Source of the DNA: an uncultured virus (IMG/VR IMGVR_UViG_2645728028_000003)
Taxonomy: Duplodnaviria > Heunggongvirae > Uroviricota > Caudoviricetes
IMG/VR virus record: IMGVR_UViG_2645728028_000003
Coordinates: 1-64,000 of that record
Strand: one strand, 5' to 3'
DNA length: 64,000 nt
Shown: piece by piece, positions 5,670 through 36,509 of the stretch
How positions within the stretch are numbered: position 1 is the first letter of the stretch
How the letters are laid out: each line of letters begins with the position of its first letter
The notes under the pieces: generated by a model
Told to the model about the DNA's origin: nothing
What the model saw: only the letters and a program-made list of their open reading frames with translations
Databases searched by the model: none
Made by a program: the position numbers and the translations under genes

Positions 5670-5672
5670 ATA

Positions 5673-6200: not shown

Positions 6201-6422
6201 CTAAGAGGCGGTTTTTAATATGCGCAGCGTCCTTGGTTGTGTTGGCTCCCAGCTAATATATCCTTTGTCCCTTAGTTTATGAAGCAAGTCACTAACTGTA
6301 GATGATGATTTTAATCCCAACATATCTGCAAGATCACGAAATGCCGGTGGATAATTGTGTTTATTTATATATTGATTTATTGCTTCTAACGTTTCTTTTT
6401 GCCTCTTGGATAGATCACGCAT
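6201..6422 (-). CDS. LexA DNA-binding-domain-only protein
   Basis: LSKRQKETL...YPPAFRDLADMLGLKSSSTV...PRTLRI; no peptidase domain. Confidence 0.85.
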   Translation of the reverse strand: MRDLSKRQKETLEAINQYINKHNYPPAFRDLADMLGLKSSSTVSDLLHKLRDKGYISWEPTQPRTLRILKTAS

Positions 6423-6639
6423 AATTTACCCCTCTTTTTCTACGTTGTTTGGCAGCAGATAAAATGTTTGCTCGTTTAAATGATCTCAGCTGCTGTTTAC
6501 CAATATCAAAAGTAAGGATGCCTTCCACAGTGATTTTTCGAATAATAACAGCCCGATATGTGAGCTCTCCTGCGTCATTCATGTATATCAAATCAATCGG
6601 TAATTTATTTTCCAGCGAGTATATAAACAAGCAATTCAT
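6415..6639 (-). CDS. Small WYL/SH3-like protein
   Basis: LIYMNDAGELTYR...RSFKRANILS; paralogue of 24161-24379. Confidence 0.6.
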   Translation of the reverse strand: MNCLFIYSLENKLPIDLIYMNDAGELTYRAVIIRKITVEGILTFDIGKQQLRSFKRANILSAAKQRRKRGVNYA

Positions 6640-6670
6640 TATTTTCAGCTCCTTTTGACACAATAATATA

Positions 6671-6720
6671 CAAACACACGTTCGATTTCAAGTTGATTTT
6701 AGAACAAACGTTTGTATAAT
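6671..6720. promoter_or_regulatory. Two LexA (SOS) boxes overlapping a sigA-like promoter
   Basis: CAAACACACGTTCG 6671-6684 and AGAACAAACGTTTG 6701-6714; TTGATT-16-TATAAT. Confidence 0.75.
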
Positions 6721-6745
6721 TTATAGTATAAGGAGATGACAAGAA

Positions 6746-7075
6746 ATGATTCGTGATCGCGGAAAAATGAAATGGCAATCTGCATTCTTTATGCCCGAGC
6801 ATGTGAAAATGCTAAAACAAATAACCTTTGATGATAAGAAACAAAAGAAGCCACTGCTGGATGAACAGGAATTTGAGGAGATTGGTTTTATTGTTATGGA
6901 TTCACTAAACTACACGATCCCCATCAAAGTAACGATCTGGCAGGAAGGTTTCTTCGAGACAATTACGGGGATTGTGGCTAAAGTGGATATGCTAATGAAA
7001 TACATACTATTTGAATGCGATGACGGAAGAAGAAGGATCAGTATTGGAGAAATAACGGGTGTTGAGAGGGTTTAA
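6746..7075 (+). CDS. YolD-like protein
   Basis: MIRDRGKMKW..FMPEH...KPLLDE signature. Confidence 0.9.
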   Translation: MIRDRGKMKWQSAFFMPEHVKMLKQITFDDKKQKKPLLDEQEFEEIGFIVMDSLNYTIPIKVTIWQEGFFETITGIVAKVDMLMKYILFECDDGRRRISIGEITGVERV

Positions 7076-7458
7076 TGATGACCAGGATTCCAGAAAAAGA
7101 CCGAGATATTTTAGAGCAAGCAATGTACTTGCCTATGCTGCTAACCATTCTTGAACGTGATCGGACTATATTTGATAAGACCGGCTTTAAACTCAAAGAG
7201 CCTTATCTTCAGTTAATTGAGGAAACCATTAAGGCCGTTCAAAGGGATTTAAAAGAAGCAAGGAACGCAATGAGAAAAGGCCAGATGAAGGTTGAGCAGG
7301 TAGCACGGGATGAGGCTTTTACGATGTTTATATTCATTTACAAAGGGTTTGAGGAACAACATAATTACTTCAACCCAAGGATCCGGAATAAAGTTCAGGA
7401 GTTAATGGAGTACTACCTTTATAACCGCTATAAAAATAAAGAACAAGCCAATATATAA
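7075..7458 (+). CDS. Conserved hypothetical protein (YhjD-like)
   Basis: Coupled to yolD; YLPMLLTILERD motif. Confidence 0.65.
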   Translation: MMTRIPEKDRDILEQAMYLPMLLTILERDRTIFDKTGFKLKEPYLQLIEETIKAVQRDLKEARNAMRKGQMKVEQVARDEAFTMFIFIYKGFEEQHNYFNPRIRNKVQELMEYYLYNRYKNKEQANI

Positions 7459-10019: not shown

Positions 10020-10298
10020 TTAAAAGTCTCGACCGTGTTCTTTGTTGTGACAATCGACACAAACAGTCTCCAGGTTATCTTCATCAAGCGCTAACTCCGG
10101 ATGATGCTCGAGCTCCTTGATGTGGTGAACTACTAGCTGGATCTTCTTGCGCTTGACACTCTCGCTGTATTCATTCGTATCGATGGATACTCGCCCTTGC
10201 CGTTTACATTCTTTGCATTCATAGTTGTCACGCATATGCTTCCATTCCCCACTGTCATAGAACTTACGCTTTTGTTTACTGGTCTTATTCTCTTTCAT
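10020..10298 (-). CDS. Phage HNH endonuclease (probably degenerate C-terminus)
   Basis: CKEC, VHHIKE, NLETVCVDCHNKEH. Confidence 0.85.
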   Translation of the reverse strand: MKENKTSKQKRKFYDSGEWKHMRDNYECKECKRQGRVSIDTNEYSESVKRKKIQLVVHHIKELEHHPELALDEDNLETVCVDCHNKEHGRDF

Positions 10299-10408: not shown

Positions 10409-11323
10409 TTAGATTTTTAATTTTTCACCATCTAGAAAAACAGCTTTAGGTCTAACACGTCGAACCCTTCTCTCTTCCATGTAATAAGTTAAATCGCTAA
10501 TTTTGTTAAGAATATTTTCTAATTGGTTTGCTCTTAACGCTTCTTCCGAATTTAGATTTGAGATAAGTTCATTTGCAATAATAATTCCATCTCTCGAAAG
10601 CGAATTTAATTCTTTAATTGCACCTAATGGTATAGGTTCACTTCTTTGAATTACATCACTTAAATATTGAGGAGGTAATAATTCAGTTGGCGATCTTAAC
10701 AATTTTTGTTGATTACGAGCAAGTTCAAGTAGTTCCTCTAAAATCTCACTGGTATATGGATTTGTTTCACTGGCCTCAGTTTTTTGCACCTCAACAACTT
10801 CTTCTGCATCAAGCAACGCATCTAGGTCTTCCTTTAAGGATGGCCACCAGACCTCAAAAACTTTATCTAGTCTTACCTGTTCAAGTGCATCACTTTGTAG
10901 AGACTTATTGATACTTTCAACTAATTTCTTTACATCATCTTTTGTATAGATTGTTGATTGGAATTGTAGAGTTGGACCAGTTACTTCTGATCTCTTTAAA
11001 TTAAATAAGAATGGCGACACCCGAGATTTTTCAACCTGCTTTGAAAGTGCTCCTGCCTCAAAGTTAATCCAAGGAGCCTTAATATTTTCTTTAGTTAAAA
11101 TAATAATCCCATAGTTCGAATTATTTAATTCACCTGCAATATCGCTACTCCATCTTGTACCCTTATCAATGTCCTCAGATGATACGTAAGGTTCTACCGA
11201 TTGAATAACTGATGGTATCCAATCCCTTAATATTAATGCAACATTTCTACTTAAATCCCCAGACCAACTTAAAAAAACTTTCATTTTCTTTATTTCACTC
11301 CATTTATCTAAAATAATACTCAC
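10409..11323 (-). CDS. TIR-domain protein
   Basis: KVFLSWSG...DIDKGTRW...WINFEAGA (TIR_2 boxes with the catalytic Glu); helical C-terminus. Confidence 0.85.
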   Translation of the reverse strand: MSIILDKWSEIKKMKVFLSWSGDLSRNVALILRDWIPSVIQSVEPYVSSEDIDKGTRWSSDIAGELNNSNYGIIILTKENIKAPWINFEAGALSKQVEKSRVSPFLFNLKRSEVTGPTLQFQSTIYTKDDVKKLVESINKSLQSDALEQVRLDKVFEVWWPSLKEDLDALLDAEEVVEVQKTEASETNPYTSEILEELLELARNQQKLLRSPTELLPPQYLSDVIQRSEPIPLGAIKELNSLSRDGIIIANELISNLNSEEALRANQLENILNKISDLTYYMEERRVRRVRPKAVFLDGEKLKI

Positions 11324-16003: not shown

Positions 16004-16387
16004 TTAAATAATTCCAAGGGACGAAGCAATCATGAATATAGCTGTTTTTTTCTTCTCATAATATGCTGTCTTCTGTAATCCAAGATCTAAATAGATATTA
16101 AGATCATTTTGTCTTTCAGCGCTTAAATATTTCATTTCAATAATTTGCCGCTCAAGTTGGTCAAGGCTATTATTAAGAGCTCTTTCCATCTGTATAACTT
16201 TAAGCTCGTTTTCAACGTCACTCTCAATTAACTTTGGGAAAATATTCTTCTGTATGCCTTTTTCACTTAGTTCTAATTTGTTCTGTATTCGGATCCTTAA
16301 AGCCCTATAGATTTTTAATTCCTTTACAACAATTGACCGAACTTCTTTTTCATCAATATCCGGAAAGAAAGATAGTTGAGCACTCAT
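16004..16387 (-). CDS. ArpU/RinA-family late transcription activator
   Basis: QLSFFPDIDEKEVR...ERQIIEMKYL...YYEKKKTAI. Confidence 0.85.
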   Translation of the reverse strand: MSAQLSFFPDIDEKEVRSIVVKELKIYRALRIRIQNKLELSEKGIQKNIFPKLIESDVENELKVIQMERALNNSLDQLERQIIEMKYLSAERQNDLNIYLDLGLQKTAYYEKKKTAIFMIASSLGII

Positions 16388-16567
16388 CCATTCTTCCCCC
16401 CTATAGTATAATTGTATTAGTCGAATACACACCATTGCCGGGAGAATTCCTGGCTTTTTTATTTAACTGGCTCTATCTTGTGTTTCCTTATTTCTTATTA
16501 AATTAATAATATTTGTTAATCACATATGGTAATATTTACTTAATCCATATGAAAGGTGCTTTAGTGA

Positions 16568-16993
16568 ATGGAAATTGCAAAAACTCTCCTGATTAATATT
16601 GAATGGGAAGGACCCTATAATTTAGTAGACCTTCCAACCCTCACCGATACCGAAACAGATTATGGTGTTTATCAAATTTATGGTAAACATCCGGTTTATG
16701 GTAGCGATGTATTGTTATACATTGGGAAGGCTGATCTCCAAACTCTCGGAAAGAGGATTTCCCAAGAAGGCTGGTGTTTTGTGATGGCTACTTATAAGCA
16801 AATCCAAGAGTATGTTAAAAAGACATATGGATATTCTGCAAAGTCTTGTTGGATAGCTCACATGAAAGAAGTTTGTGGACTAAAACCAAAAATGTCAGCA
16901 CGAAGATATTCTCCTCACTCAAGAGTCCACCCCTGCCCAGAATCAAAACAAAAGGACATAAAAGAAGCTTTTAAACATTTCAATATGATTTAG
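16568..16993 (+). pseudogene. Chimera: GIY-YIG-like N-terminal fragment fused to a 69-aa phage protein
   Basis: GVYQIY...LLYIGKA, then a copy of 60063-60290 from 16767. Confidence 0.6.
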
Positions 16994-17066
16994 ACACATT
17001 TTTATTAAGGTCATATACTCAAAGCTTGAATCGCTCACTTACCGCAGAGATACGGTTTTTTTATTG

Positions 17067-17155
17067 GTATAAAATACTTTCAACTGGACAAACTACCTGC
17101 ACGAGCAAGGCCAATCCTCCACATACAAAAACTCCCTAGATTAGGTCCTTGCTCG
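17067..17155 (+). promoter_or_regulatory. sigG/sigF-like promoter followed by a leader hairpin
   Basis: GTATA-17-CAAACTA; CGAGCAAGG...CCTTGCTCG; conserved at 60670-60756. Confidence 0.55.
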
Positions 17156-17176
17156 CCATTTAAATGGGGTGATACC

Positions 17177-17308
17177 ATGCTTCAATGGATTGATGAAAAC
17201 ACTTTAAAAAATGTATATATCGTCACACTTGGAGTTCCAAGTATATTGACTTTTCTTTGGCTCTTAGCAGTTGCTTTAACTTTTAGAGCTGAGAAAAAAG
17301 GGAAATGA
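17177..17308 (+). CDS. 43-aa single-TM peptide (not in ORF track)
   Basis: MLQWIDENTLKNVYIVTLGVPSILTFLWLLAVALTFRAEKKGK; paralogue at 60777-60905. Confidence 0.7.
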   Translation: MLQWIDENTLKNVYIVTLGVPSILTFLWLLAVALTFRAEKKGK

Positions 17309-17412
17309 AACTGATTGCTTATTTTGTTTCCTTAATACTAGCTTTCTTGGGATATTAACAAGTATGTCAGCATAACTTTTAGATAAATCCCAAAGAAGGA
17401 GGTCATTAAATA

Positions 17413-18121: not shown

Positions 18122-18156
18122 AAAACCCCTCGATACCAGTAGTATCAAGGGGTTTT
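18122..18156 (-). terminator. Rho-independent terminator after the glnA 3' end copy
   Basis: AAAACCCCTCGATAC / GTATCAAGGGGTTTT with U-tract on the minus strand. Confidence 0.8.
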
Positions 18157-18582: not shown

Positions 18583-19275
18583 CTATTCGACTGGGATTAG
18601 TTTTACCGGTGCTTCTGTCTGGATTTCATATTCAAACTCTGCAGAAAAAACGTACTCTGGTACACCGTTGTCTGAACCAAGGATGGTGTTAACAATTAAT
18701 GATCCAGTTGAATCATAAACCACGAAATTACTCCCCCTACCAGCTGGTACCGCTTTATATCTTCCAAGAGGCACATCATCTCCCACGATAAAGTGGCCCG
18801 CACTTAAGTTTACAGGAGCTTCATTTTTTTCTTTTATAACTTTCTCAATTTTTGCAAGTTCATCTCTTTTTGCTTTTATGTCAGCAGTTAAATTAGAGAC
18901 AGTAGTTTCTTGACCTGATTTCGTGGACTCCAGACTTTTGATGTCTGCTTCAAGTTGTTTTTTATTTTCAACAGCCGTTAAAGCTTCATCAAACTCTGCC
19001 TTTTTTTCAGAATACTGCTTATCTAGATCACTAATTTTGCTGTTAATTTCTTCTTCCTTCTTTTTGAGATTTGCTTCAGCATCTTTAAGTTCATTTTCTT
19101 TATCGCTTATTTTGCTTACCAATTCATCATAGGTAACTTTTTCATCGTCTATTACGGCCTTCGCTCCTGAATATCCAATTGTATAGAAGATGGAAAGAAC
19201 TATAGCTACACCTGCAACTCCAATCCAAAACTTTTTTGTTTTGAGCCAACTTACCTTCTCTCTTTCAATTTCCAC
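18583..19275 (-). CDS. Membrane-anchored coiled-coil protein with small C-terminal beta domain
   Basis: N-terminal TM, long heptads, LSAGHFIVGDDVPLGRY. Confidence 0.75.
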   Translation of the reverse strand: MEIEREKVSWLKTKKFWIGVAGVAIVLSIFYTIGYSGAKAVIDDEKVTYDELVSKISDKENELKDAEANLKKKEEEINSKISDLDKQYSEKKAEFDEALTAVENKKQLEADIKSLESTKSGQETTVSNLTADIKAKRDELAKIEKVIKEKNEAPVNLSAGHFIVGDDVPLGRYKAVPAGRGSNFVVYDSTGSLIVNTILGSDNGVPEYVFSAEFEYEIQTEAPVKLIPVE

Positions 19276-19454
19276 CCTTAATTCCCCCTATTTATTTATA
19301 AATAAATTTTACCATCTTACTTAAACATTTCCATCTATTTTTCAATTAGTCCTTTTTTATCCAGATAATAAAAAATTCAGCATCCAAAACCAATAGAACC
19401 GTTTTAATGTCGACTCCTGTATTTTTACTGATTGATTTTGCCATGTGTTTAATA

Positions 19455-21830
19455 TCAATTTCCATTTGATACTTCCTCCAGTTTACAGGATACTGGCGCC
19501 GGCAGTTTTGTAATAAACCGTCCATACCCATCTTTATTTTTAATCAGGTTCAACGAGTGGAACCTCTTCAACTGCATAAGATCCTCCAGCTCAAATGGCT
19601 TTAATTCATCCTGCAGCTCCTTAAAATTCTCCTTATCGCACCCGGCTATCAGCATATAGCTGGCACTAGCACTTCTTAATTCTGGGCGGATTGTTTTGAT
19701 TTGATTTAAGTAATGGCAGCTGATAATTGGTTTGATATTAAACTTAGGCAGCCTGCTAAGTTTAGTTGTTAAAAACTTCTCAGTACTCTCTACCTGGTAC
19801 AGCTCATCAATAACCAGGTTAACCTTCGTCATCTCATCCCGGTTATTTTTATATTTCATTTTCCGCATTTGCAAGGCCATCCAAATCTTAGTGATCCAGT
19901 ACGTGCAGTAAACATCTTTCTCATTGTCGGTAGTAAACATATGCTCGGGCATTTTAAAACATATAAGCTGGCTCTTTTGCATTTCCTCCACAAGGTTGAA
20001 GTTATTGGCTGTCGATTTTTTTAGCATGAGCTCCATATATGTGTTGGACTTTAACTTATTAAGACGGTCAATAATCCCAACAATTAAATTCAATTTTGTT
20101 CCTTGGATATTACCATCCTTATCATAATCATCAAGTTCATCCAAGCTCATCATATATTCTTCTAAGTTCTCATATTGACTTTTAGACACCTTTATTAAAA
20201 ATTGATGCCTGGCATTATGGTTTTGGAGTACCTGAAATACATCACGAATGCTCCCACCAGAGATAAATACAATCAGAGCCGCACTGGTTAGGTATCGTTC
20301 CATTTTAGGTGAAAGGTGAGTGTCTGCAGAGTTAATCGAATTAACCAGAGTCATTAGCTGGGTGGTCTGTTTCTTGGCATTGTCATATTGGATAAAAGGA
20401 TCTGCAGTTACTTCTACCTCGTTATATCCTAATCCTTGCAACTTCTCAAAGTCGTTACATTCTACATTTAAAACCTTCTCCTTGGAAAACAGTGCTGCTA
20501 CTTCCTCGCTTAATTCACAGTTGCCAATGTAATCGAAAATTATGGTACATTCCCCGACCTTCACTGAATCAAATGCAAGATTTCCGATTAAAGTTGATTT
20601 CCCTGCGCGGTTCGGTCCGATAAGAATCAGTGAAAGGTATTTAAATTCTTTGTCTGTGGAAAGAAAAGCATCCTGCTTATTCCCTCTGTATGTGCTGGTG
20701 CCAATCCTCATTACTCCCATCCTTAAGTCTTCAGGAACCTCCGTCTCCTGAGTTTCTACCTTTTCGATGAAATTATATTTTTCCAATATGTCTCGGCCAG
20801 CAAGAGAAAGAAAGTTCTGTGCTTCTTCATCTCCTATTTTGTTTACTTCTGCTTTAATTTTATAATCAGTATAGTTAAACGGCTTTACAGATTTAGAGAT
20901 TAATTTATTGTCGTCCGTTATTGTTTCAAATGATTGCGCTAAGCTCCGAGCACTGTTTCGCTGCCTTAATTTATCTGAGCTTTCGCTGATCACTACAATT
21001 TGAGTATCGATGACAGTTGCGGTGGCCTTTTTCCGAGTGGATTCATTAATCTTCTTTCCCCCGTTTAACCGTTCCAGTGTTTGCTCAAGTATGTTAATGC
21101 TATCAATTCCTTTCTTTGACTTGTTTTCACCTCCAAGAGCCTCCCCGATTCCATCTGTGATGGATGAAAGTATGCCGATTGCTAATTTAAAACAGTAGGA
21201 TATACCAACTTTATTACGGTCTGTAGGAAGGTTTCGTTTCACTTTATTGATTGTGTTTTCGTAGCTGCTTCGCCAGCTGAACTGAGATGCTGGCATAAAG
21301 TTGTAAAAGATCCCTGCTTTGTCTCCTTCTTCTAATACATCCACCACATTCAGCTTGGAATGCAGCAAGTCACTATTCCGCCGGTCTGTAGCTAGACTTA
21401 AGGCGTCTTCTTTTTTATAGACCATTTGATACATGGCTGCGTCATCAGAAAACATAGGGAGCTGTTCTACCTCAGTAACTGTGATGTTGGTCCACACATC
21501 ACCTATTTTTTCTTTAATGAATGAATAATGATGTTTGGGAGCAATGAAATAAAATTCGATTTTCTTCTTCTCTATATAAACCAAGAAACTTACTTTTGAA
21601 TTCATCTCAAATGAGAATTGAGTCCCGAGCAAAAATTCTTTGCCCAGGGCCTTAACTAACTTTACTTCCTCTTTATTTATATTTTGAATTAAATTCTTGT
21701 GTAGGGATGCGATGGCTTTGGCAAGTTTATGAGTGGTTTGATTACGGATTGAGTTATTAGGAGTTAATTTAATAAAGATATATTCTGGACGAACGATTTT
21801 AAAGTATTTGCTTAGCTTTATGGTTTTCAT
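19455..21830 (-). CDS. Large P-loop ATPase of HerA/VirB4/VirD4-like type
   Basis: Walker A GPNRAGKS, IIFD, Walker B LVIDELYQ, ISCHYLNQ. Confidence 0.75.
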   Translation of the reverse strand: MKTIKLSKYFKIVRPEYIFIKLTPNNSIRNQTTHKLAKAIASLHKNLIQNINKEEVKLVKALGKEFLLGTQFSFEMNSKVSFLVYIEKKKIEFYFIAPKHHYSFIKEKIGDVWTNITVTEVEQLPMFSDDAAMYQMVYKKEDALSLATDRRNSDLLHSKLNVVDVLEEGDKAGIFYNFMPASQFSWRSSYENTINKVKRNLPTDRNKVGISYCFKLAIGILSSITDGIGEALGGENKSKKGIDSINILEQTLERLNGGKKINESTRKKATATVIDTQIVVISESSDKLRQRNSARSLAQSFETITDDNKLISKSVKPFNYTDYKIKAEVNKIGDEEAQNFLSLAGRDILEKYNFIEKVETQETEVPEDLRMGVMRIGTSTYRGNKQDAFLSTDKEFKYLSLILIGPNRAGKSTLIGNLAFDSVKVGECTIIFDYIGNCELSEEVAALFSKEKVLNVECNDFEKLQGLGYNEVEVTADPFIQYDNAKKQTTQLMTLVNSINSADTHLSPKMERYLTSAALIVFISGGSIRDVFQVLQNHNARHQFLIKVSKSQYENLEEYMMSLDELDDYDKDGNIQGTKLNLIVGIIDRLNKLKSNTYMELMLKKSTANNFNLVEEMQKSQLICFKMPEHMFTTDNEKDVYCTYWITKIWMALQMRKMKYKNNRDEMTKVNLVIDELYQVESTEKFLTTKLSRLPKFNIKPIISCHYLNQIKTIRPELRSASASYMLIAGCDKENFKELQDELKPFELEDLMQLKRFHSLNLIKNKDGYGRFITKLPAPVSCKLEEVSNGN

Positions 21831-22093
21831 TCTCCATTCCTCCAAAATGTAAATGGTACAACGGCATTAAGCAAAGACTCATCGTACTCTTGAAGCCACA
21901 GGTAATCATAATATATCTCCTTATTTTCAAGCTTGTGGATCAATCGCTCGTAAAGATGACCCGCAATAATACCCGGCTTTACTCCCATTGAATGCAGGGG
22001 TTTTAAAAAATTCCCCCATTGCTTACAGTCAAGGCAAATATTACTTTTAGAAAACAAAATATTTCCGCACATCTCGCAACTTTTTTTCGCCAT
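21827..22093 (-). CDS. Small Zn-ribbon hypothetical protein
   Basis: CEMC...CLDC; translationally coupled within the operon. Confidence 0.55.
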   Translation of the reverse strand: MAKKSCEMCGNILFSKSNICLDCKQWGNFLKPLHSMGVKPGIIAGHLYERLIHKLENKEIYYDYLWLQEYDESLLNAVVPFTFWRNGE

Positions 22094-22094
22094 T

Positions 22095-22784
22095 TCAAAT
22101 CCCTCCAAATAAGTATTTAATAAGAATGTTAGCGACCATTAAAACCCCTGCCCAACGACTACCATCTCGCCATCCTGCAACTTTTAAAATGATGCATAGG
22201 GCAGAACCAACCAGGGAAGCACCAAGGAGTAAATCTTTTAACGCGTCCAAAGCCCCTAATGTGAATTCAGTAACGTATTCTTTGGCATATTCGCGAATCA
22301 AGCTTTCCTGTTCGTATCCTTGGTAATTGTTCACCTTTCCCCGTTCCAAAAACCAATTAAAGATACCACCTTTCGAAATACTAGAGGTTTCCCCGCTCAT
22401 GGCTGCCAGTTGTTCAGCTACTGGAGTTGGATCCATGAAAGTACCATCAGGAGACCGTAAACCAAAATGCAAATGGGCAGCTGTAGAGTTTCCGGTATTT
22501 CCACTCAGGCCAATAATGTCACCTGCATCAACGTGTTCTCCAACCCTGGCAGTCACTTCGTTCATGTGGCCATAAATGGCTCGTGTGCCATCTGTTAGCT
22601 GAATTGATAACCCTTTACCTATTGCACCAGACCCGTTAAAGATACGATCAATTGTACCTTCTCCAATAGCTCTTAATGTGCTGTTTTCCGGAACAGCTAA
22701 ATCAATACCTGTGTGAGGCTGCCAATTTCGCACTGGTGAGAGTTCCCCAAATTCCCCTGATAGACGAAATTTCAAATTAATCAC
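22095..22784 (-). CDS. M23 peptidase with C-terminal TM helices
   Basis: HTGID, YGHM, GNTGNSTAAHLHF. Confidence 0.9.
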   Translation of the reverse strand: MINLKFRLSGEFGELSPVRNWQPHTGIDLAVPENSTLRAIGEGTIDRIFNGSGAIGKGLSIQLTDGTRAIYGHMNEVTARVGEHVDAGDIIGLSGNTGNSTAAHLHFGLRSPDGTFMDPTPVAEQLAAMSGETSSISKGGIFNWFLERGKVNNYQGYEQESLIREYAKEYVTEFTLGALDALKDLLLGASLVGSALCIILKVAGWRDGSRWAGVLMVANILIKYLFGGI

Positions 22785-22787
22785 CTC

Positions 22788-23195
22788 CTAAGCCATCTTC
22801 ACATTAGAAAACAATTTATCTATTTCTTCAAATCCGTAAGGCAATGCTAAAAGTAAAATGTAGATTAACAGATAAGAGAAGAATGATTTTTTAGCAGAAT
22901 CAAAATCACCATTTCCCACAGCTTTGATGGTATCAATACTTCCTTTGAATATAATGATCCATTTACCAACATCCATTAATTTGTAGTAGATCAAATTGGC
23001 TTTTGCATCTATTGCACTACTGGCTGCAAGAGCATAGTCAAACCCTCCTCCGGCCACAAATATGACTACTGTAGAGCCGACTATTTTATATAGCATTCCG
23101 TACTTTTTGAAATGCCTGGTGACTCTCGTTTGGAATGTTTCCTGTTCCTTTCCGTTAAGAAATTCTCGGACAGACATTTTTTCAACTTTTTTCAT
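22788..23195 (-). CDS. VirB2/pilin-like membrane protein
   Basis: Leader ending ALA followed by two hydrophobic helices. Confidence 0.55.
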   Translation of the reverse strand: MKKVEKMSVREFLNGKEQETFQTRVTRHFKKYGMLYKIVGSTVVIFVAGGGFDYALAASSAIDAKANLIYYKLMDVGKWIIIFKGSIDTIKAVGNGDFDSAKKSFFSYLLIYILLLALPYGFEEIDKLFSNVKMA

Positions 23196-23276
23196 CCTAA
23201 ACCCTCCTGTACATGCATTTTTTCTAAAGTGCTCGCATAAGCTGACGTAAAGACGCGTCTGCTACCTGGCACACGT

Positions 23277-23489
23277 CTAACCTAATTTGAAACCGTTAAA
23301 AGCGTTCTTTCCGCCATGTATTACATTGGCCTGGGGAGGCGCATTTTTTGTGTTTTCACCTCTCTCCATATCTCTCTGAATAAGCCTTTTCATGTACTTA
23401 GAGAATGCTCCGTTACTGATAGCGTGTTTATACAGTTCTATTTCAAACGGATCGCTAAGGCTGAAGGAAACCGGCTGAACCTTTCTCAT
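23277..23489 (-). CDS. Small ribbon-helix-helix-like protein
   Basis: VQPVSFSLSD...FSKYMKRLIQRD. Confidence 0.55.
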   Translation of the reverse strand: MRKVQPVSFSLSDPFEIELYKHAISNGAFSKYMKRLIQRDMERGENTKNAPPQANVIHGGKNAFNGFKLG

Positions 23490-23645
23490 AAAATCCACTC
23501 CCATTTAAGTAATACATCCGTAATACCTCTTTGAAATCTGAGTGGTGTTACGTTTGTAATACATTCTTATTCGTCTACTACTAATTAATTGCACGTCCAA
23601 GTTAAATGAAGGAAAATTTATTTCTTTGACGAAATTTTAGACGAG

Positions 23646-23894
23646 GTGGTAACGATGAAATCGCGTTTAAAAGAGGTCATGGACGAAAGAGGAATAAAGC
23701 AAAGTCACTTTGTTAAGAAATATGGAATCAGTGCGAAGACGATGAGCACATTATATAGAGGAACCATTCCTACATTGCAAAACGCCTACATAATTGCCCA
23801 GGAATTAGGGTTGCCCATAGAAGAAATCTGGTATGATGACATTAATAAATACATCAAAAAGTCTGAACCCCAAAAACGTGAAAAGCGCCCCTAA
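23646..23894 (+). CDS. XRE/HTH regulator
   Basis: SRLKEVMDERGIKQ...PTLQNAYIIAQELGLPIEEIW. Confidence 0.85.
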   Translation: MVTMKSRLKEVMDERGIKQSHFVKKYGISAKTMSTLYRGTIPTLQNAYIIAQELGLPIEEIWYDDINKYIKKSEPQKREKRP

Positions 23895-24157
23895 AACTGA
23901 GGAGCGCTTTCTACCTTTAATATATCTAAGAATGGAACTTTAACCGTATCAAAACCATTTTCGACATGAATTAATTTTGTCTGACCGTCTAGTTTCACAA
24001 TTTTTCCTTGTACTGGTTCTTCTTTTTTAAACACGATCAAAGTAACCTCATTTTTTTCAGTATGAGCCTCAACTAGCTGATTCCCTAATTCTTCAAGTTC
24101 AAAATCATCTCGGGATGGACGTTGTGGCTTTGACTTTTTCGGCATTTTAACTCCCAC
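23891..24157 (-). CDS. YolD-like protein (short form)
   Basis: RPSRDDFELEEL...GKIVKLD...VPFLDILKV. Confidence 0.75.
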   Translation of the reverse strand: MGVKMPKKSKPQRPSRDDFELEELGNQLVEAHTEKNEVTLIVFKKEEPVQGKIVKLDGQTKLIHVENGFDTVKVPFLDILKVESAPQF

Positions 24158-24160: not shown

Positions 24161-24379
24161 TTAAGCTCCTCTCAATATCTTGCGTTCAGGTCCGACCGAT
24201 AAAACATTCCTTATTAAAAATGTCCTCTGCTGACTCCTGGCATAACAATACGCACGAAATGATTCATCATCCAAGCTTAAAACCTTTACTTTCCGTTGGC
24301 TAATGACCCCTTTGTTGTCTAGATAAATCATTTCGAGCAGTTCTCCATTTGATGCAGCTCGCGATAGTATCCCCTTCAT
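24161..24379 (-). CDS. Small WYL/SH3-like protein
   Basis: EMIYLDNKGVISQR...AYCYARSQQRTFLIRNVLS. Confidence 0.65.
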   Translation of the reverse strand: MKGILSRAASNGELLEMIYLDNKGVISQRKVKVLSLDDESFRAYCYARSQQRTFLIRNVLSVGPERKILRGA

Positions 24380-24409
24380 CGATCGAACCTCCTTTTCTTT
24401 AATTTTATA

Positions 24410-24461
24410 CGAACCTTTGTTCGAATTCAAGTTGAATACAGAATATACGTTCGTGTATAAT
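24410..24461. promoter_or_regulatory. Two LexA (SOS) boxes overlapping a sigA-like promoter
   Basis: CGAACCTTTGTTCG 24410-24423 and AGAATATACGTTCG 24440-24453; TTGAAT-18-TATAAT. Confidence 0.8.
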
Positions 24462-25457: not shown

Positions 25458-25901
25458 CTATATAAATATGTTTGCAAGTCTAAACAATGAATCAAACCTA
25501 AACTTCAAATTGTAATCATTCCAAATAGCAGTAGTGCCTTCACTGTTGGTGTATATATTACCAAGTTGTAATTGTTCCATTATTTCAGCTTTGAACCTTT
25601 TTACCCCTAACTCTTGATACCTCCGAATCCTAGAGGGAATAAACGAAAGGTTTTCAATATCTTTAAATAATTCATCAGAAATAAAATAATCGTAATTCAT
25701 TGGAAACATATCTTTAATGGACCCATTAATTATAAACAGAATGATTACACTTTTTTCTAAGAAAACAAAGCTCCAACTCTTCTCTCCTATCACGACCACA
25801 AAATCCTCGTTATATAAGTCAACTATTTGATACTCTATATCCGGCTTAAACAGTTGAAGATATGAAGTTAATGCGTCGTTATCGATTGAAAAGTTCTCCA
25901 T
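25458..25901 (-). CDS. Hypothetical protein, partner of the 855-aa gene
   Basis: RBS, 21 bp downstream of the large ORF. Confidence 0.7.
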   Translation of the reverse strand: MENFSIDNDALTSYLQLFKPDIEYQIVDLYNEDFVVVIGEKSWSFVFLEKSVIILFIINGSIKDMFPMNYDYFISDELFKDIENLSFIPSRIRRYQELGVKRFKAEIMEQLQLGNIYTNSEGTTAIWNDYNLKFRFDSLFRLANIFI

Positions 25902-25922
25902 GGGTAATCCCCTCTGTTAATT

Positions 25923-28490
25923 TTAGTCTTTATCCTCAATAAACTCTGTAACTGATTTCGTATCTAATTGAGGATATTCTTCTACATTTTTGTTTAGAAC
26001 CCTTCTGAACAATATATCTACAGCACCTATATCAATTACTTCCTTAGTAAATAATTTAATTAACTCTTTACTAAAAATTGTTCTTGAATTTGCGATATGT
26101 TCATAGTTTTTTCTATACATATGATACAAATATAATAATGTATCAACAGTCAAAAAGATTGGTCTTGCATTTGACTCATCATTTAATTTCTCATAAAAGT
26201 GCTGTTTCATAGTTTCAAATTGCACTTCTTTAAACCTGTTTGAGATAAATACGTGACCAGAAAGTTCCTGGTTATCACTATAATTCTGGATAATGTCATT
26301 ATCATTCAATAGTTCGATATAATCTACCGCTTTCCTTTGTTCCTCTTTTTTAAGATTGTATCCTTCATCACTTCTAGTGAACTTACAGTCATATGAAAAT
26401 ACTCTTCTTTTTTCTTGTTTTAACTTACCCTTTTCAATATAAGAGATAGCAAAGATCCCTTCGGGTACAGGTTTCCCGCTCATTTCTTTTCCCCATTTCT
26501 CAGAATTGGGGAATAGGTCTTTCAATATAGCATAAATGTCATCTTCAAATTTCTTATCTGTATATTTTTTATCTACCTTTGATGGAGGTGTTTTTAATTG
26601 ACCCAATGATTCCTCAGCAATACTTGCTGCATTATGCACAAAAGATTTTTGACGAAGTTTGAGTTTCTCAATTATTTGTGAATAAAAATCACCGAACATA
26701 TGTTCATCAGTTACATATAGATTACCAAAAGTTACTGCTTGTATGCAATCACTATTATAAGATTCAAGATTCTTTTCTAATTGACCTACAAAGACAATTA
26801 TAGTTGGTGTCATCATTGTTTTTAATCTGTTTAGGTCTTTGTAGGGTATACTTTGATCCGATAACAATATTTGAATGATCTCATTATTCTCTAAACTTTC
26901 TAACTTATAGAATTTGTATTGGGTATCATCAAAAATAATTTTCGGTTCGTATGTTGCTAAGGAGAAATTGGACAATCCTTTTAAAGATTTTCTAATTAAT
27001 GACCTTATTACTGTTAAATCAGATTTCATTTCAGTTATTTCCTTGAACTTTAAATCACGGTTACCGCAATCCGGGCACTCATCAGGGGTTTCGTCAGTAA
27101 TTTCTTTCTCTAATTTACAAACTATACAATAAAAATTCTGCTTTTTTACTTCAATTATTAATTTATTTTTAATTAACTCTGATAGGATTTTTTTACCATG
27201 CTCATCTAATGACTTGGTCTGTGGTGTACCTAACAAATAATCTATCTTATCTGCTTTACCAGCTGTATATTTTCCATTTGCTATTTCTTGGTTTAAAGGA
27301 ATTCCAAATTTCTTTATAAATTTTTCAACAATCAACTGTTTCTTTGCTTCTTCTAAACGACTGTCATCCATAGTAAACAAAACATTTCCATTATCACGAA
27401 CAATCGATCGTACGATTCTACTTTTACTAGACGACTTTATTGACAAACTCTCGATATCCTTTAAGCTTTCTAAGTCAATGCATTTATTTATATGTGCATA
27501 TTTAACAGATGGCCAAATATCCTCATTTTCGAGTTCTAAAGTTACTTTTGGTGAATTTTTAATTGGACTTTCCCTGAAAACTATTTTATTTACTACAAAA
27601 TCCTCAACCTTCTCTTCTCCAGGTAATGACCCTTGAATAAATGCGTTTTTTACATCTTCACTATTATATTTTTCAAATACCTTAAGCTGGATAGGTGACG
27701 GATTACAATCCGGGAAATTATTATTAAAATATTTAATTAAGGCCTTCTTATCTGTTAGAGTTGTACTCTTTATTTCTAATGTTCTCTCTTTTGCATTAAC
27801 AGAGAACATTAGTGGTACAACTTCTTTATTTCTAACAGCTTTATCAAAATCCGCTCTTGGAGCATCATTTACCTGCTTATATAAAATAACAGTAACTGTT
27901 TGGTCTAATATTAAATATGAAAATACTCGAAACTTCTGTTTTTGTCCAGACTCTCTAAATAATTCATCAATAAGTATATTTCTATATGAACTTGGTATTT
28001 TTTGTGCTTCATCTAATGTAATACCTTTCTCATATGTATACAAATCTCCAGTGGACTTAATATCCCAAGAATATAAAGTATATAATTCAATCATTGATAA
28101 GCTAGTGTTAGAAATTAAATGTTTTAATTTAGTTAAGCTTGAAGATGCAAATTGCTCTTGTGCATTTGACATTTTCAACTTATAAAATTTATTGATTGTT
28201 TGTTTACGCCTATTTTCATAGTCATGAAGTATTAATATTTCTCGTTTATCATCTTCTGGTAGACCTAATAATAAAGTTACTAATTCAGTTTTACTTTCTG
28301 CAGAATCTAAGCCATATAAAACTGCTAGTTCCTTTAAGACACTTACTGTTTTGTTTTCTAATAATCTCTTAACCCTATTACTAATTAATGGACCTTCTAA
28401 TTCCAAAATGGGATCAATTGAGACACCAATTTCTCTCCAAAACCTTTCATCAGGTTTTGTATTGTCTTTATAATCAAAATTTAGCGACAC
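25923..28490 (-). CDS. 855-aa protein with Zn ribbon and putative C-terminal restriction-endonuclease-like domain
   Basis: CIVC/CPDC; KFEDD...PEG...YDCK resembles the E..PD-(D/E)xK arrangement; very AT-rich. Confidence 0.7.
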   Translation of the reverse strand: MSLNFDYKDNTKPDERFWREIGVSIDPILELEGPLISNRVKRLLENKTVSVLKELAVLYGLDSAESKTELVTLLLGLPEDDKREILILHDYENRRKQTINKFYKLKMSNAQEQFASSSLTKLKHLISNTSLSMIELYTLYSWDIKSTGDLYTYEKGITLDEAQKIPSSYRNILIDELFRESGQKQKFRVFSYLILDQTVTVILYKQVNDAPRADFDKAVRNKEVVPLMFSVNAKERTLEIKSTTLTDKKALIKYFNNNFPDCNPSPIQLKVFEKYNSEDVKNAFIQGSLPGEEKVEDFVVNKIVFRESPIKNSPKVTLELENEDIWPSVKYAHINKCIDLESLKDIESLSIKSSSKSRIVRSIVRDNGNVLFTMDDSRLEEAKKQLIVEKFIKKFGIPLNQEIANGKYTAGKADKIDYLLGTPQTKSLDEHGKKILSELIKNKLIIEVKKQNFYCIVCKLEKEITDETPDECPDCGNRDLKFKEITEMKSDLTVIRSLIRKSLKGLSNFSLATYEPKIIFDDTQYKFYKLESLENNEIIQILLSDQSIPYKDLNRLKTMMTPTIIVFVGQLEKNLESYNSDCIQAVTFGNLYVTDEHMFGDFYSQIIEKLKLRQKSFVHNAASIAEESLGQLKTPPSKVDKKYTDKKFEDDIYAILKDLFPNSEKWGKEMSGKPVPEGIFAISYIEKGKLKQEKRRVFSYDCKFTRSDEGYNLKKEEQRKAVDYIELLNDNDIIQNYSDNQELSGHVFISNRFKEVQFETMKQHFYEKLNDESNARPIFLTVDTLLYLYHMYRKNYEHIANSRTIFSKELIKLFTKEVIDIGAVDILFRRVLNKNVEEYPQLDTKSVTEFIEDKD

Positions 28491-33563: not shown

Positions 33564-33964
33564 AAACATAATCAGGAATACGATAATCTTATTCCTCAAA
33601 CCGGGAGCAAAAACAGAAGATTGTAATGTTATGCCTTTAATATTATCTTGATATCGAGTCTTCAAGAAAAGGGCGCTTTTCTTTAATAAGAAGGCGTCTT
33701 TTTGTATTGAGTAAGATTCTAGAAAAATATATTTATGGGATTGGATTATGTTAAAGTATAAAAGAGATTGTGAAGGTTTCTACTTAAACTCCCTCAGTTT
33801 AATACGATTATCTTCCGAATACTCGCTTATTCGCAGGATTTCATCCACCTAGGATTACATTTAATTGAATGTAAGGAGTAGATTCTGGACATTTGGCTAC
33901 GTGAAGGCATAGTTAAATAGAGGAGTAGGATTATACTCCATATTTTACCATGTGATGTACTTCT

Positions 33965-34110
33965 CCACGCCGCCCCTGGAGGCTTTCCCTCCCATGTCTC
34001 AACGGGTCAATCGCCCTCTCATTCCTTCGTCATGCCTATCCAAGGGGTGGAGGCCAGTCTAGCTAACGGAATGGGTCAGTGCCCTTTTGTTTAAGTAACC
34101 TGGTACTCCG
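33965..34110 (-). ncRNA. Putative IS110 bridge RNA (ends approximate)
   Basis: Two internal loops with GGGC..TGACCC hairpins; guides match the target and the donor junction. Confidence 0.75.
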
Positions 34111-34178
34111 TACATATTTGAGATCCTGCGAATAAGCCAACATTCGATCTAATTTCTCTTCGAAAAAATTTGTTTAAA

Positions 34179-35453
34179 CTAAGCTGCCAGCTCTGTTAGG
34201 GGTCGAACTTTTTCTGGACAATACGATTCGTTATTACGTGCCATTCCTACAAAAATCCTGGCCAATTTCCCAACCAGTTTCATTATCGATTTCATCTTTT
34301 TCATTTTCTTGACTTTCACATTATTGGAGTGGACAGCCTTAAACTCAGCGTTGTTTATTACCAGGCTGATAGTGGCCAGGTAAAGGAAACGCCTGAGTCT
34401 TGACCTTCCACGTTTTGATAAGACAATTTGTCCTTTCCATTTCCCAGAACTAGCTTCAGAGAGATGGAGCCCTGCGTGGCGGAGTAAAGAATTACCGTGC
34501 GAAAACCCACTTAAATCTCCTGCTTCGCCTAAAATACCGGCTAAAGAAATATCACTAATTCCCTTGATCTTAAGCAGTTTATCGGCGAAAGGAATTTTAA
34601 GAAGTTCTTTCTTGATTGTCAGCTCGACTCTGTTTAGTTGTTGAACCGCAAGGTCATACTCTTCGAGTAATTGTTCCAGATGAAATTTATAGGCCTCTAT
34701 GGCTTGCATTGTACCGACAGATTTCCTGGCTACATTGAGAAGTAAATAGGCTTTCTTTAACCCAGGCTGTCTTTTCATGAGTGATTTCCAACCGGAAACG
34801 ATCTCATCTGGATTCATGGAACCTAGTTCCATCGGAGTTGGAAAAAGCCGCAGTGTGGCGATTGCCCCTTTTGCGGTAATGTCTTTAAAGACTTGCCTGA
34901 GTTCGGGAAAAACAATGTCCACCCAGCGATTTAATTGATTAATAGAGCTTACAAGCCTTTTAACAACAACATCCCGGTTAGACATGAGAACCCTGAGTTT
35001 TTCAAACGGTTCAGAAGCAAGTCTCACAAAGGAGTAGTAACCATTCTTCACCATATCGGCTATGACGAGGGCATCTTTCTTATCACTCTTTGATTGCGTA
35101 TTATCACGATTTTCTTTATTCCTTTTAACCAAATGTGGATTAACCGTTACTACCTCAATATTTCGCTTTATGAGCCATTTTGAAAGGTTAATCCAATAAT
35201 GGCCTGTTGGTTCCATTCCGACAATGGATACCTCTAATTTATGTAATCTTTTAAGATTATTAATCCAGTTTAATAGGGCCGAGAAACCTTCTTCGTCGTT
35301 TTGAAAAGTGATTGGATCTCCTAGAACAATTCCACGAAAATTGACAGCCCTGGCTACATGGAATTGTTGGGCAATATCTACTCCAATTACAAGATGCTTG
35401 TCAGAAATTCTTTCGATTAGTTGATTTTGTTTGTCCTGCATTTTAAACTTCAT
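34179..35453 (-). CDS. IS110 recombinase/transposase
   Basis: DEDD motif (GVDIA, GMEPTG, KSDKKDA); C-terminal SSGK...SKRG. Confidence 0.95.
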   Translation of the reverse strand: MKFKMQDKQNQLIERISDKHLVIGVDIAQQFHVARAVNFRGIVLGDPITFQNDEEGFSALLNWINNLKRLHKLEVSIVGMEPTGHYWINLSKWLIKRNIEVVTVNPHLVKRNKENRDNTQSKSDKKDALVIADMVKNGYYSFVRLASEPFEKLRVLMSNRDVVVKRLVSSINQLNRWVDIVFPELRQVFKDITAKGAIATLRLFPTPMELGSMNPDEIVSGWKSLMKRQPGLKKAYLLLNVARKSVGTMQAIEAYKFHLEQLLEEYDLAVQQLNRVELTIKKELLKIPFADKLLKIKGISDISLAGILGEAGDLSGFSHGNSLLRHAGLHLSEASSGKWKGQIVLSKRGRSRLRRFLYLATISLVINNAEFKAVHSNNVKVKKMKKMKSIMKLVGKLARIFVGMARNNESYCPEKVRPLTELAA

Positions 35454-35596
35454 AGTAAGGGTTCCTCCTAAGGTTTGAGTTAGAGTGGTGTCTTTACTCA
35501 TATCTTACTGAGGAGCCCTGTTTTTATCAAAGCTCAAATTTAGTGATCTACAGGAATGCTATAGGGTGCGTTTGTTCATTAAAATAATCTATAATA

Positions 35597-35630: not shown

Positions 35631-36509
35631 TTATTTAAGGAACTCCCCAACTGCAGCTGCTGTCTCGAAACGATCAGCACCAGAAAGCAAAGTAACCTTA
35701 TCAGCTACCATTCCATCCTTGGTACCGCCAACAACATATAATTCTTTGGCCACTTTTTGACCTTTAACAATAGAGCGCAAGTAGACGGGAGCTTTTAGTT
35801 TAAGCGCAAGCCTCTCTGCCACAGGGAAATCTGCAAATCCGTTGATTACAATTGCTTTTTTCAACATATCATCTTCCTCCTTTGGTTTTGGTTCTGGTTT
35901 CGGTTTTTGAACTGGCTTTGTAGGTGGCTTTTCTGTTACCTTCTTTTTCAACCCAGCATACTTTGCAACACCAGAAGCCGCAGCATAACCGGCAGCACGC
36001 AAAACCTTGTCATCTCGAAGCTTTTTGATATCAATAGTGGAATCCATATACCCTCCTTCAAGAAGGATGGAAGGCATTTTCGTTTCACGCAAGATTTGAA
36101 AATCAGCTTTCTTTAATCCTCTATCTTTGAGACCGTATGCTTCCACAAGACGAGAGTGCACATATCCAGCGAGCCTTTCAGCATCTGGCCAGGATCCTAA
36201 ATAGGTATAAGTTTCTGTGCCTGTCCAGGTCCCCCATCTGGCTAGATATGCATTGTGGTGGAATGATATATAAAGATCAGCTCCCCATCTGTTAGCCTTA
36301 TCTACCCTGTCATCGAGAGATACGTCTTTTCGTCCGGTTCGGTCATCTGTCCTTAAAAATACAACGTCTTCATATTTTTTCAGGGCTTGTTCAAATGCCA
36401 AAATGACCTTGTTATTAAAATCCCATTCATATTCATTTGCAGGTGATCTTTTGCCTGCAGTTACTCCAAATCCTGCATGACCTGCACATCCAGCTAGCTT
36501 AAGGACCAA
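35631..36509 (-). CDS. Endolysin, N-acetylmuramoyl-L-alanine amidase (Amidase_3)
   Basis: AGHAG, YEW, ISFHHNA, ILLEGGYMD; C-terminal SGADRFET cell-wall-binding repeat. Confidence 0.95.
   Translation of the reverse strand: MVLKLAGCAGHAGFGVTAGKRSPANEYEWDFNNKVILAFEQALKKYEDVVFLRTDDRTGRKDVSLDDRVDKANRWGADLYISFHHNAYLARWGTWTGTETYTYLGSWPDAERLAGYVHSRLVEAYGLKDRGLKKADFQILRETKMPSILLEGGYMDSTIDIKKLRDDKVLRAAGYAAASGVAKYAGLKKKVTEKPPTKPVQKPKPEPKPKEEDDMLKKAIVINGFADFPVAERLALKLKAPVYLRSIVKGQKVAKELYVVGGTKDGMVADKVTLLSGADRFETAAAVGEFLK

Follow-up and report, generated by a model that had tools for sequence, protein, structure and literature searches.

Secretion-type ATPases encoded next to small membrane proteins have been described in phages before. 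In phage SPP1, genes 31.1, 31.2 and 32 form a cassette within an early transcription unit; according to Godinho et al. 2018 (PMC6316719), gp31.1 and gp31.2 have 3 and 2 predicted transmembrane segments, respectively, gp32 resembles TrwB, VirB4 and FtsK by HHpred, the three proteins were proposed as a possible trans-membrane translocon, and genes 31.2 and 32 are non-essential. For phage 0305phi8-36, Pathria et al. 2012 (PMC3357382) give the name 'DNA translocation operon' to a gene set with a relaxase (ORF200), an ATPase (ORF201), ORF203 and an actin-like protein (ORF207), report partial versions of this operon in SPO1, GBSV1, BV1 and Gamma-like phages and no laboratory defect upon deletion of the island, and speculate that phage genomes might pass between cells without particles. 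Searches of the literature for experiments on the function of such a cassette returned descriptive accounts only (PMC6316719, PMC3357382), plus a 2026 citation concerning the SPO1 ParM gene. Here we analyzed a minus-strand cassette of this kind in a 64,000-nucleotide stretch of DNA from an uncultured Caudoviricetes virus (IMG/VR record IMGVR_UViG_2645728028_000003, positions 1 to 64,000; hereafter the window). An earlier note, made from the letters of the window alone, had read the cassette as an undescribed, reduced transfer or extrusion system; the word 'undescribed' has to be withdrawn, given the accounts for SPP1 (PMC6316719) and for 0305phi8-36, SPO1 and Gamma-like phages (PMC3357382).

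The window cassette quite probably encodes a device derived from a type IV secretion system (T4SS), in which a VirB4-like ATPase is combined with two small membrane hairpin proteins and, here, with a wall endopeptidase, and which serves the phage as a dispensable accessory. The genes that carry this reading are the following:

22788..23195, minus strand: 135-aa membrane protein, pilin-like candidate (alignment of 20 homologues)
22095..22784, minus strand: predicted M23 peptidase with a C-terminal hairpin of two transmembrane helices, 229 aa (PF01551, E 1.4e-22)
19455..21830, minus strand, from the ATG at 21830 (791 aa; open reading frame 19455-21845, 796 aa): VirB4-like two-domain ATPase (phrog_5156, E 8.9e-91)

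By homology we assign this cassette to the same family as SPP1 gp31.1/gp31.2/gp32 and 0305phi8-36 ORF201-204. A tblastn search with the window ATPase matched 91 phage records, including SPP1 gene 32, GBK2, phiCp-D and CP-51-like myoviruses, and 36 plasmids, among them a C. botulinum plasmid of ~57 kb that also bears terminase genes. The match to SPP1 gene 32 extended over 94% of the query at 22% identity (E 9e-12), and hhalign aligned the ATPase family at full length with 0305phi8-36 ORF201 (probability 99.9, E 4.6e-32, 676 columns) and also with the ATPase of plasmid pCLK (probability 100, E 4e-80). Scoring of 7,999 candidates gave 748 family members at E up to 0.001, and the family had 476 cluster representatives at 50% identity, 185 of them at E up to 1e-30; the PHROG to which the window ATPase belongs (phrog_5156) has no function assigned there.

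A neighborhood scan with an alignment of close-relative ATPases, limited to one genome per species, returned 42 loci, in which open reading frames (ORFs) were called and searched with the window proteins and with hidden Markov models (HMMs) built from their homologues; the counts of core genes refer to those 36 loci in which the ATPase is full-length and 1.5 kb or more of sequence precedes it. In every one of these 36 loci, an HMM found the 135-aa protein directly upstream of the ATPase, and the two-helix hairpin was present in 31. The M23 domain was fused to the hairpin in 24/36 loci and absent from the other 12, while a lone hairpin of 67-157 residues without M23 occurred in seven (L021, L027, L030, L032, L036, L042 and L043). 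These counts define a conserved core of three genes, for the 135-aa protein, the hairpin protein and the ATPase, and since this core recurs the gene arrangement in the window is not due to chance. Because the hairpin also occurs alone, the M23 domain is best regarded as an optional N-terminal addition to a small membrane subunit. The window shares the fused form with most of its Bacillaceae and Paenibacillus relatives. Two further proteins, which the earlier note had counted as parts of the system, fared differently: neither the Zn-ribbon protein encoded between the hairpin protein and the ATPase nor the coiled-coil protein encoded behind the ATPase had a match in any fetched locus, and the same held for a 61-aa ORF in the operon. 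The Zn-ribbon protein, which gave weak Zn-ribbon Pfam matches only, also had no match in 268 other genomes of the host family. We therefore read the Zn-ribbon gene as a strain-specific insertion and the coiled-coil gene as a neighbor, both of them, like the 61-aa ORF, local additions and not parts of the machine, so that of the genes taken in the earlier note as one unit it is the three-gene core that travels together. At the DNA level, the operon had no match in the phage collection.

Compared with this locus, the SPP1 cassette likewise has a soluble ATPase of ~800 aa preceded by two small membrane proteins, whereas it differs in belonging to a lytic phage, in its place in an early transcription unit, in the lack of a Zn-ribbon gene and in gp31.2, for which no Pfam family (no M23) was found. 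Beyond the distant ATPases, the link between the 135-aa protein and SPP1 gp31.1, its equivalent by position, is weak (E 0.0091 in one search, 16 aligned columns in another), and no sequence link to gp31.2 was found. Phage 0305phi8-36 shares the homologous ATPase and, upstream of it, small membrane protein genes together with the actin-like ORF207 (PF17989), the latter as in 8 fetched loci. It differs by the addition of the Replic_Relax-type ORF200 (PF13814, E 6.2e-5, just below the cut-off), which the ATPase gene overlaps, and of the polytopic ORF203, termed VirB6-like in PMC3357382; the window cassette and the fetched loci are without either. There is also no M23 domain in 0305phi8-36, and ORF204, upstream, gave a weak T4SS_pilin match (E 9.7e-4) below the cut-off.

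With the VirB2-VirB3-VirB4 core of a T4SS (R388 TrwK/VirB4, 7o42 and 8rtd), the cassette has in common one or more small membrane proteins followed by an ATPase, both VirB4 domains by fold and a wall hydrolase; a T4SS has wall hydrolases of the VirB1 type, and those of the PrgK type belong to Gram-positive T4SS. The window operon differs in being without VirB6, VirB8, a coupling protein and a relaxase, and its hairpin protein ends right after the second transmembrane helix, whereas in R388 a cytoplasmic part of VirB3, which the hairpin protein is without, holds VirB4. The pCLK-type plasmids of C. botulinum and C. sporogenes carry a full-length ATPase homologue whose start is overlapped by a TrbC/VirB2 gene, and on pCLK this gene passes the Pfam TrbC/VirB2 cut-off (E 1.8e-6, 28.5 bits vs 27.9). 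In contrast to the window, these plasmids, 150-270 kb in size, have two genes only, without an M23 or hairpin gene in between, and the pilin is not alignable with the 135-aa protein. Within the searches made, what is new here is that both ATPase domains are VirB4-like, that most prophage versions carry the M23-hairpin fusion, that the core consists of three genes without a relaxase and holds a consistent post-lysis position, and that the hosts are almost all spore formers.

The ATPase comprises an N-terminal domain (residues 1-365) and a P-loop domain (residues 369-789), and the Walker A residues G415/K416 and Walker B residues D680/E681 were invariant in an alignment of 58 sequences. An AlphaFold model built from the 58-member alignment reached a pLDDT of 88.6. 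The best chain for the C-terminal domain (369-789) was the Thermoanaerobacter VirB4 4ag5 (Z 26.2, rmsd 3.7, 339 aligned), nearly tied with TrwB (Z 25.8), DndH-C (25.1) and HerA (23.8), with HerA-based defence complexes at Z 18-20. The N-terminal domain was folded alone (pLDDT 84.8) and, with no prior Foldseek filter, searched against 48,161 representative chains; its top match was TrwK/VirB4 of R388 (7o42_A; Z 14.2, rmsd 3.8, 237 aligned), the next chain scoring 8.2, and the HerA chain 9x1l_A was matched over a short helical stretch only (Z 5.0, 54 aligned). A Foldseek search with the same domain placed TrwK/VirB4 at all of ranks 1-11 (best E 2.9e-5). As the N-terminal domain matches only TrwK/VirB4 well, the ATPase is predicted to have the two-domain build of VirB4, unlike a coupling protein or HerA. 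The large P-loop ATPase, for which the earlier note had left VirB4, VirD4 and a non-transfer HerA type in play, can accordingly be placed with VirB4 on the strength of its N-terminal domain. Of the two outcomes that would have spoken against the proposal in that note, a HerA-type ATPase and genes that do not occur together elsewhere, neither was observed.

In its 20 homologues, the 135-aa protein has a leader of ~55 residues whose hydrophobic segment runs up to an A-x-A site. Behind it come VGKWIIIFKG, a loop and a hydrophobic helix; K102/K103 of the loop are invariant, and the first helix is amphipathic or hydrophobic and contains charged residues. A long leader with an AxA site followed by two helices joined by a short charged loop is the layout of TrbC/VirB2 propilins. 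We therefore consider the label 'pilin-like' plausible for this candidate, and it receives indirect support because the ATPase relatives on pCLK and in 0305phi8-36 have pilin-family matches upstream. Its Atlas neighbors, with scores of 0.88 for a TrbC/VirB2 cluster and 0.87 for one of Maff2, lie below the counting level and serve as leads only. The second membrane protein matched PF01551 at 80.1 bits (cut-off 28.7), with the M23 domain at about residues 1-130 and the C-terminal hairpin, visible as two terminal hydrophobic helices in the alignment, at about residues 160-229. Its catalytic residues H24, D28, H73, H104 and H106 were kept in 24-25 of 25 homologues (ligands H24, D28 and H106 in 25/25, H104 in 24/25), and the domain is predicted to be an active-looking LytM-type peptidoglycan endopeptidase, in line with the wall hydrolase with C-terminal transmembrane segments proposed earlier. 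The hairpin loop carries the conserved motif W-x-D/K-G-x-R/K-W and has a mean net charge of +1.5, against -2.3 in the flank before the first transmembrane helix; by the positive-inside rule, the loop would be cytoplasmic and the M23 domain outside. Together, an M23 hydrolase, pilin-like membrane proteins and a VirB4-like ATPase fit a T4SS-derived module, which leaves standing the set of T4SS-like parts in the earlier note, apart from its novelty as a transfer system. An Atlas search with the hairpin returned unnamed clusters only as feature neighbors, and a reading of the hairpin as T4SS_pilin, raised by two clusters at a TM score of 0.72-0.73 among helical-hairpin look-alikes, was dropped because the fold is too short to count.

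Several results weigh against a T4SS derivation. No VirB4, AAA_10 or TraG model matched the ATPase in Pfam at E up to 0.1, where P-loop noise was the sole signal, no VirB4 model of NCBIfam recognized it, and both phmmer with the ATPase and a family-profile search gave P-loop matches only among PDB sequences. A PF12846 search of the source genome detected one different gene only, on contig C20, and not the ATPase; hhalign of the family profile with this canonical VirB4, as a single sequence a target of low sensitivity, covered 35 columns around the P-loop at a probability of 14%. The VirB4 likeness of the modelled ATPase is thus structural, with no detectable sequence homology beyond the P-loop, and the C-terminal domain taken alone would place the protein in the FtsK/HerA/VirB4/VirD4 clade without separating VirB4 from TrwB, DndH or HerA, because their scores are practically tied. 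As to channel parts, searches with Pfam and PHROGs found no VirB6, VirB8, coupling protein or relaxase in the operon, the last in agreement with the earlier note, and among 136 flanking proteins of 16 surveyed loci PHROGs gave no annotation as VirB6, VirB8, coupling protein or relaxase. The 20 homologues of the 135-aa protein matched neither PF04956 nor PF18895 at E up to 10 and no Pfam family, and hhalign with the pCLK TrbC protein yielded no alignment, so that of the VirB2-like membrane protein proposed earlier the layout remains and a match to a pilin model does not. The M23 domain has no signal peptide, and its export follows from the positive-inside argument only. The canonical VirB4 gene on contig C20 (28459-29559; locus L049:1447-3897, minus strand) encodes an 816-aa protein of the AAA_10 type (PF12846, E 1.5e-98), and the host therefore also carries an ordinary conjugative element.

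We next turn to the hosts of the cassette. Three divergent queries of the phage collection, namely the window ATPase, ORF201 and SPP1 gp32, returned 91, 104 and 107 phage records with 8, 6 and 9 genus-level names, respectively. The hosts or names were Bacillus, Geobacillus (including two 'Deep-sea thermophilic phage' records), Lysinibacillus, Brevibacillus, Alicyclobacillus, Clostridium and Terrisporobacter, with one Microcystis, and the plasmid matches were distributed over Clostridium (32), Bacillus (3) and Thermoactinomyces (1). As a control, the window terminase matched phages of Vibrio, Escherichia, Arthrobacter and many others. The phage collection includes many phages of staphylococci, streptococci, lactococci and listeriae, and all matched genera except Microcystis are endospore formers. 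Since Clostridium is farther from Bacillus than Staphylococcus or Listeria are, the cassette tracks sporulation better than phylogeny. This host pattern, which is correlative, was the sole pointer to function found here.

As judged from the non-essential SPP1 genes 31.2 and 32 and the 0305phi8-36 island, the cassette is an accessory, dispensable for plaque growth; it is under HTH/RHH control of its own. Mechanistically, the ATPase would form a ring beneath the membrane, docked on the conserved cytoplasmic loops of the hairpin proteins, and ATP hydrolysis would push a cargo through the membrane, either a macromolecule or the pilin-like subunits, with the M23 domain cutting peptidoglycan locally. 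Because the cassette is almost confined to phages and plasmids of endospore formers, we tentatively favor sporulation-linked transport as its purpose, for example of the phage genome or of a factor across the sporulation septum, a reading that is possible and at the same time doubtful. What speaks against it is that the link to sporulation comes from host distribution alone, and that integrated prophages enter spores with the chromosome anyway, which leaves less need for such a device in the window. More specifically, the cassette might be a phage-owned conduit for particle-free movement of the genome across the septum, which we regard as rather unlikely: DNA delivered to the septum by a partition pair, actin-like or tubulin-like, would cross where the M23 domain has opened the septal wall, driven by the VirB4-like ATPase. 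Such a conduit would account for the range of the cassette, which extends over endospore formers from Bacillus to Clostridium with their phages and plasmids, with none seen in phages of non-sporulating Bacillota.

Other purposes have to be weighed against sporulation-linked transport. A membrane complex expressed by the prophage or soon after infection may block or expel incoming phage or plasmid DNA at the envelope, as in superinfection exclusion or inter-element conflict. This would suit the moron-like position between the lysis genes and the prophage end (endolysin within 6 kb in 14/16 loci, integrase in 4/16), the patchy genomic distribution, the divergent HTH regulator with its repeated operator-like motifs, a superinfection-exclusion family gene (phrog_4980) beside the cassette in L006, and the early transcription and non-essential nature of the SPP1 cassette (PMC6316719). 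Against it, no PADLOC family fits except for a partial mad8 match (E 4.7e-8), and the restriction to phages of spore formers is left unexplained. We know of no exclusion system that uses a VirB4-type ATPase and a wall hydrolase, and we judge an exclusion function to be unlikely. The position behind same-strand holin/endolysin genes (12/16 loci, and 12 kb past the endolysin in the window), the conserved M23 catalytic residues and the M23-hairpin fusion in 24/36 loci would also be compatible with an accessory of lysis or wall remodelling, in which the ATPase and the hairpins place the endopeptidase in the wall and thereby aid release or prepare neighbor cells. However, the ATPase and hairpins persist in the 12/36 loci without M23, no M23 family was found among the products of the genes that adjoin the ATPase gene of SPP1, of the C. 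botulinum plasmids and of 0305phi8-36, and the SPP1 cassette belongs to an early transcription unit (PMC6316719). Since the membrane core persists without it, the hydrolase would be an add-on and not the purpose of the cassette, and a lysis accessory appears distinctly unlikely.

Conjugation-like, particle-free spread of phage DNA between vegetative cells, which was the idea of the earlier note and on which Pathria et al. 2012 had already speculated, draws on the same VirB4-like ATPase, pilin-like proteins and wall hydrolase, on the overlap of the 0305phi8-36 ATPase gene with a Replic_Relax-type gene, on the cell-to-cell translocation proposed in PMC3357382, and on a PF13814 gene in the window itself (2750-3379) that adjoins an FtsK-like gene (3318-4637). 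These two window genes lie 15 kb from the cassette, however, and form a separate mobile block whose three congener genomes are without the cassette. No homologue of ORF200, ORF203, the window FtsK-like protein or the window Replic_Relax protein was found within 6 kb in the fetched loci, PF13814 occurred in 0/5 other cassette-bearing genomes in a search that did find two copies in the source genome as a positive control, VirB6, VirB8 and a coupling protein were found in neither the operon nor the surveyed loci, and strictly lytic phages carry the cassette as well; we therefore think such spread quite improbable. That the ATPase is a defence or DNA-processing enzyme of the HerA/FtsK type with no link to secretion is highly improbable. 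Its P-loop domain is close to HerA, DndH-C and the HerA-based defence complexes and has the partial mad8 match as its sole PADLOC match, whereas the N-terminal domain sets TrwK/VirB4 (Z 14.2) far above HerA (Z 5.0 over 54 residues), no conserved nuclease or Sir2 partner was seen in the surveyed neighborhoods, where the conserved partners are small membrane proteins, and PADLOC recognized no defence system.

About a hundred sequenced phages of Bacillus, Geobacillus and Clostridium, and many prophages, retain a secretion-type ATPase cassette that is dispensable under laboratory conditions. The two VirB4 domains, the M23-hairpin fusion and the spore-former distribution make the question of its function sharper and testable. 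Transport of phage DNA or of a factor, be it through the sporulation septum or from cell to cell, would give phages a new way to persist or spread; an exclusion device of this build would represent a new class of exclusion system.

In the window, the cassette lies in a compact unit of tightly coupled minus-strand genes (23489..18583), with seven ORFs between 23.5 and 18.1 kb. The remaining features of the unit and its control region are as follows:

23646..23894, plus strand: HTH regulator gene, Cro/C1-type, 82 aa, divergent from the operon (PF13443 HTH_26, E 2.3e-9; phrog_3 and phrog_4 repressor families)
23490..23645, no strand: control region between the HTH and RHH-like genes; repeats of ATGTATTAC as probable operator sites
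23277..23489, minus strand, from a probable ATG at 23489 (ORF 23277-23504): RHH-like small DNA-binding protein, ~70 aa (phrog_8966, E 9.1e-17)
21827..22093, minus strand, from a probable ATG at 22093 (88 aa; ORF 21827-22108, 93 aa): Zn-ribbon protein with two CxxC pairs
19346..19465, minus strand: candidate 39-codon ORF, possibly a coupled small protein (sequence reading)
18583..19275, minus strand: coiled-coil protein with a transmembrane anchor and a beta-rich C-terminal part (coiled-coil-type weak matches only)
18122..18156, minus strand: terminator-like hairpin of 16 pairs followed by a T run, closing the minus-strand unit

All genes listed in the earlier note were present as a tightly coupled operon, with 1 nt between the M23 stop and the Zn-ribbon ATG and an ATGA overlap of the ATPase ATG with the Zn-ribbon stop, and the coordinates and the PF13443 match agree with its placement of the RHH-like gene divergent from the HTH gene and of the coiled-coil gene behind the ATPase. 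The ATG of the RHH-like gene at 23489 is placed behind a GGGAGTGG ribosome site. The motif ATGTATTAC has three exact copies in the whole window, at 23509-23517, 23556-23564 and 23316-23324, the last of which falls within the RHH gene, and a copy with one mismatch at 23520-23528; the repeats are probably operator sites. HTH homologues were found upstream of the cassette in the fetched loci L006, L007, L008, L012, L017 and L027. The candidate 39-codon ORF starts at an ATG 8 nt ahead of the ATPase stop, preceded by a strong ribosome site GGAGGAAG; in its longer 61-aa reading it matched no Pfam or PHROG family. In 0305phi8-36, the 39-aa hydrophobic ORF202 flanks the ATPase gene on the opposite side. 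The coiled-coil gene has a promoter-like site of its own with an extended -10 at 19333-19306, and a second terminator-like hairpin lies just ahead of the unit at 23881-23911 on the minus strand. YolD-like genes are located at 23891-24157 and 6746-7075 (PF08863, E 1.4e-10; phrog_3352, E 9.3e-26); the former adjoins the HTH gene of the cassette, with a WYL-like small ORF beside it at 24161-24430.

The RHH-like protein matched no Pfam family, the function of its PHROG (phrog_8966) is not assigned, and its homologues occur upstream of the cassette in 17 fetched loci. An actin-like gene (PF17989) ends within the RHH gene in L014, L027, L030 and L038, the RHH gene overlapping its stop; in L035 the two genes lie as a pair on the opposite strand. 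Because it is paired with an actin-like gene, once on the other strand, the RHH protein is probably a ParR-type adaptor or an operon regulator and not a part of the machine. Actin-like genes (PF17989, ALP_N) were seen just upstream of the cassette in L007, L011, L013, L022, L030, L031, L035 and L038, and further ones lie by the cassette in L053 (0305phi8-36 ORF207) and L001 (phiCp-D ParM), so that a pair of the filament-forming, DNA-positioning kind is a recurrent companion of the cassette; the window keeps the RHH gene only, with no actin-like partner beside the cassette.

Same-strand late genes of the siphovirus type occupy 35.6-56.3 kb of the window, from the terminase at 56 kb through tape measure, Dit, Tal and holin to the endolysin at 35.6 kb (35631-36509), followed by an insertion sequence, ~10 kb of cargo and then the cassette, 12 kb downstream of the endolysin. 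An endolysin gene was found upstream and co-oriented within 6 kb in 12/16 surveyed loci and downstream on the other strand in two more, and an integrase within 6 kb in four; two loci had neither, L011 being located beside early recombination genes and L042 beside group II intron genes. From this survey, the cassette usually occupies the accessory arm that extends from the lysis genes to the end of the prophage. Its occurrence in the host family is patchy, with 11/268 other genomes positive and 0/42 in the same genus, and comparison of window positions 1-38 kb with the 42 congeners gave patchy mobile matches only and no conserved chromosome. Two stretches at 16763-17339, near an ArpU-like gene (16004-16435), repeat DNA of the 60-61 kb prophage region (60059-60936) at 94% and 78% identity, which points to another, related phage remnant beside the cassette; the cassette may belong either to the complete siphovirus-type prophage or to this adjacent remnant.

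The FtsK-like and Replic_Relax genes (PF01580, FtsK/SpoIIIE-like, and PF13814) are part of a 4.7-kb mobile block at 2737-7411, together with HTH and YolD-like genes; three congeners have DNA matching the block at 87-89% identity. We had considered the pair as coupling protein and relaxase of the cassette and rejected it, because the two do not co-occur (block in 3 congeners, cassette in 0/42). The counterpart of the block in genome G068 lies 1.2 kb from holin-like DNA, and pieces related to the block are also found 6-9 kb upstream of the window in the source genome. Between the lysis genes and the cassette, an 855-aa protein (25458-28490, minus strand) without a PHROG or PADLOC family gave weak matches to a HypA Zn-ribbon (E 0.0015) and a FokI cleavage domain (E 0.022) and is a candidate nuclease-type cargo gene; a 147-aa ORF without a family comes next after it. 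A TIR-domain protein (10409-11323, minus strand; PF13676, E 1.2e-6; phrog_13899, E 1.2e-79), whose gene adjoins an HNH endonuclease gene (10020-10298), is possibly a defence protein. The insertion sequence at 33780-35570 (transposase 34179-35501, phrog_2199) lies just past the endolysin gene, and the source genome has further copies that are 100% identical to it, while those in several congeners reach 72-97%.

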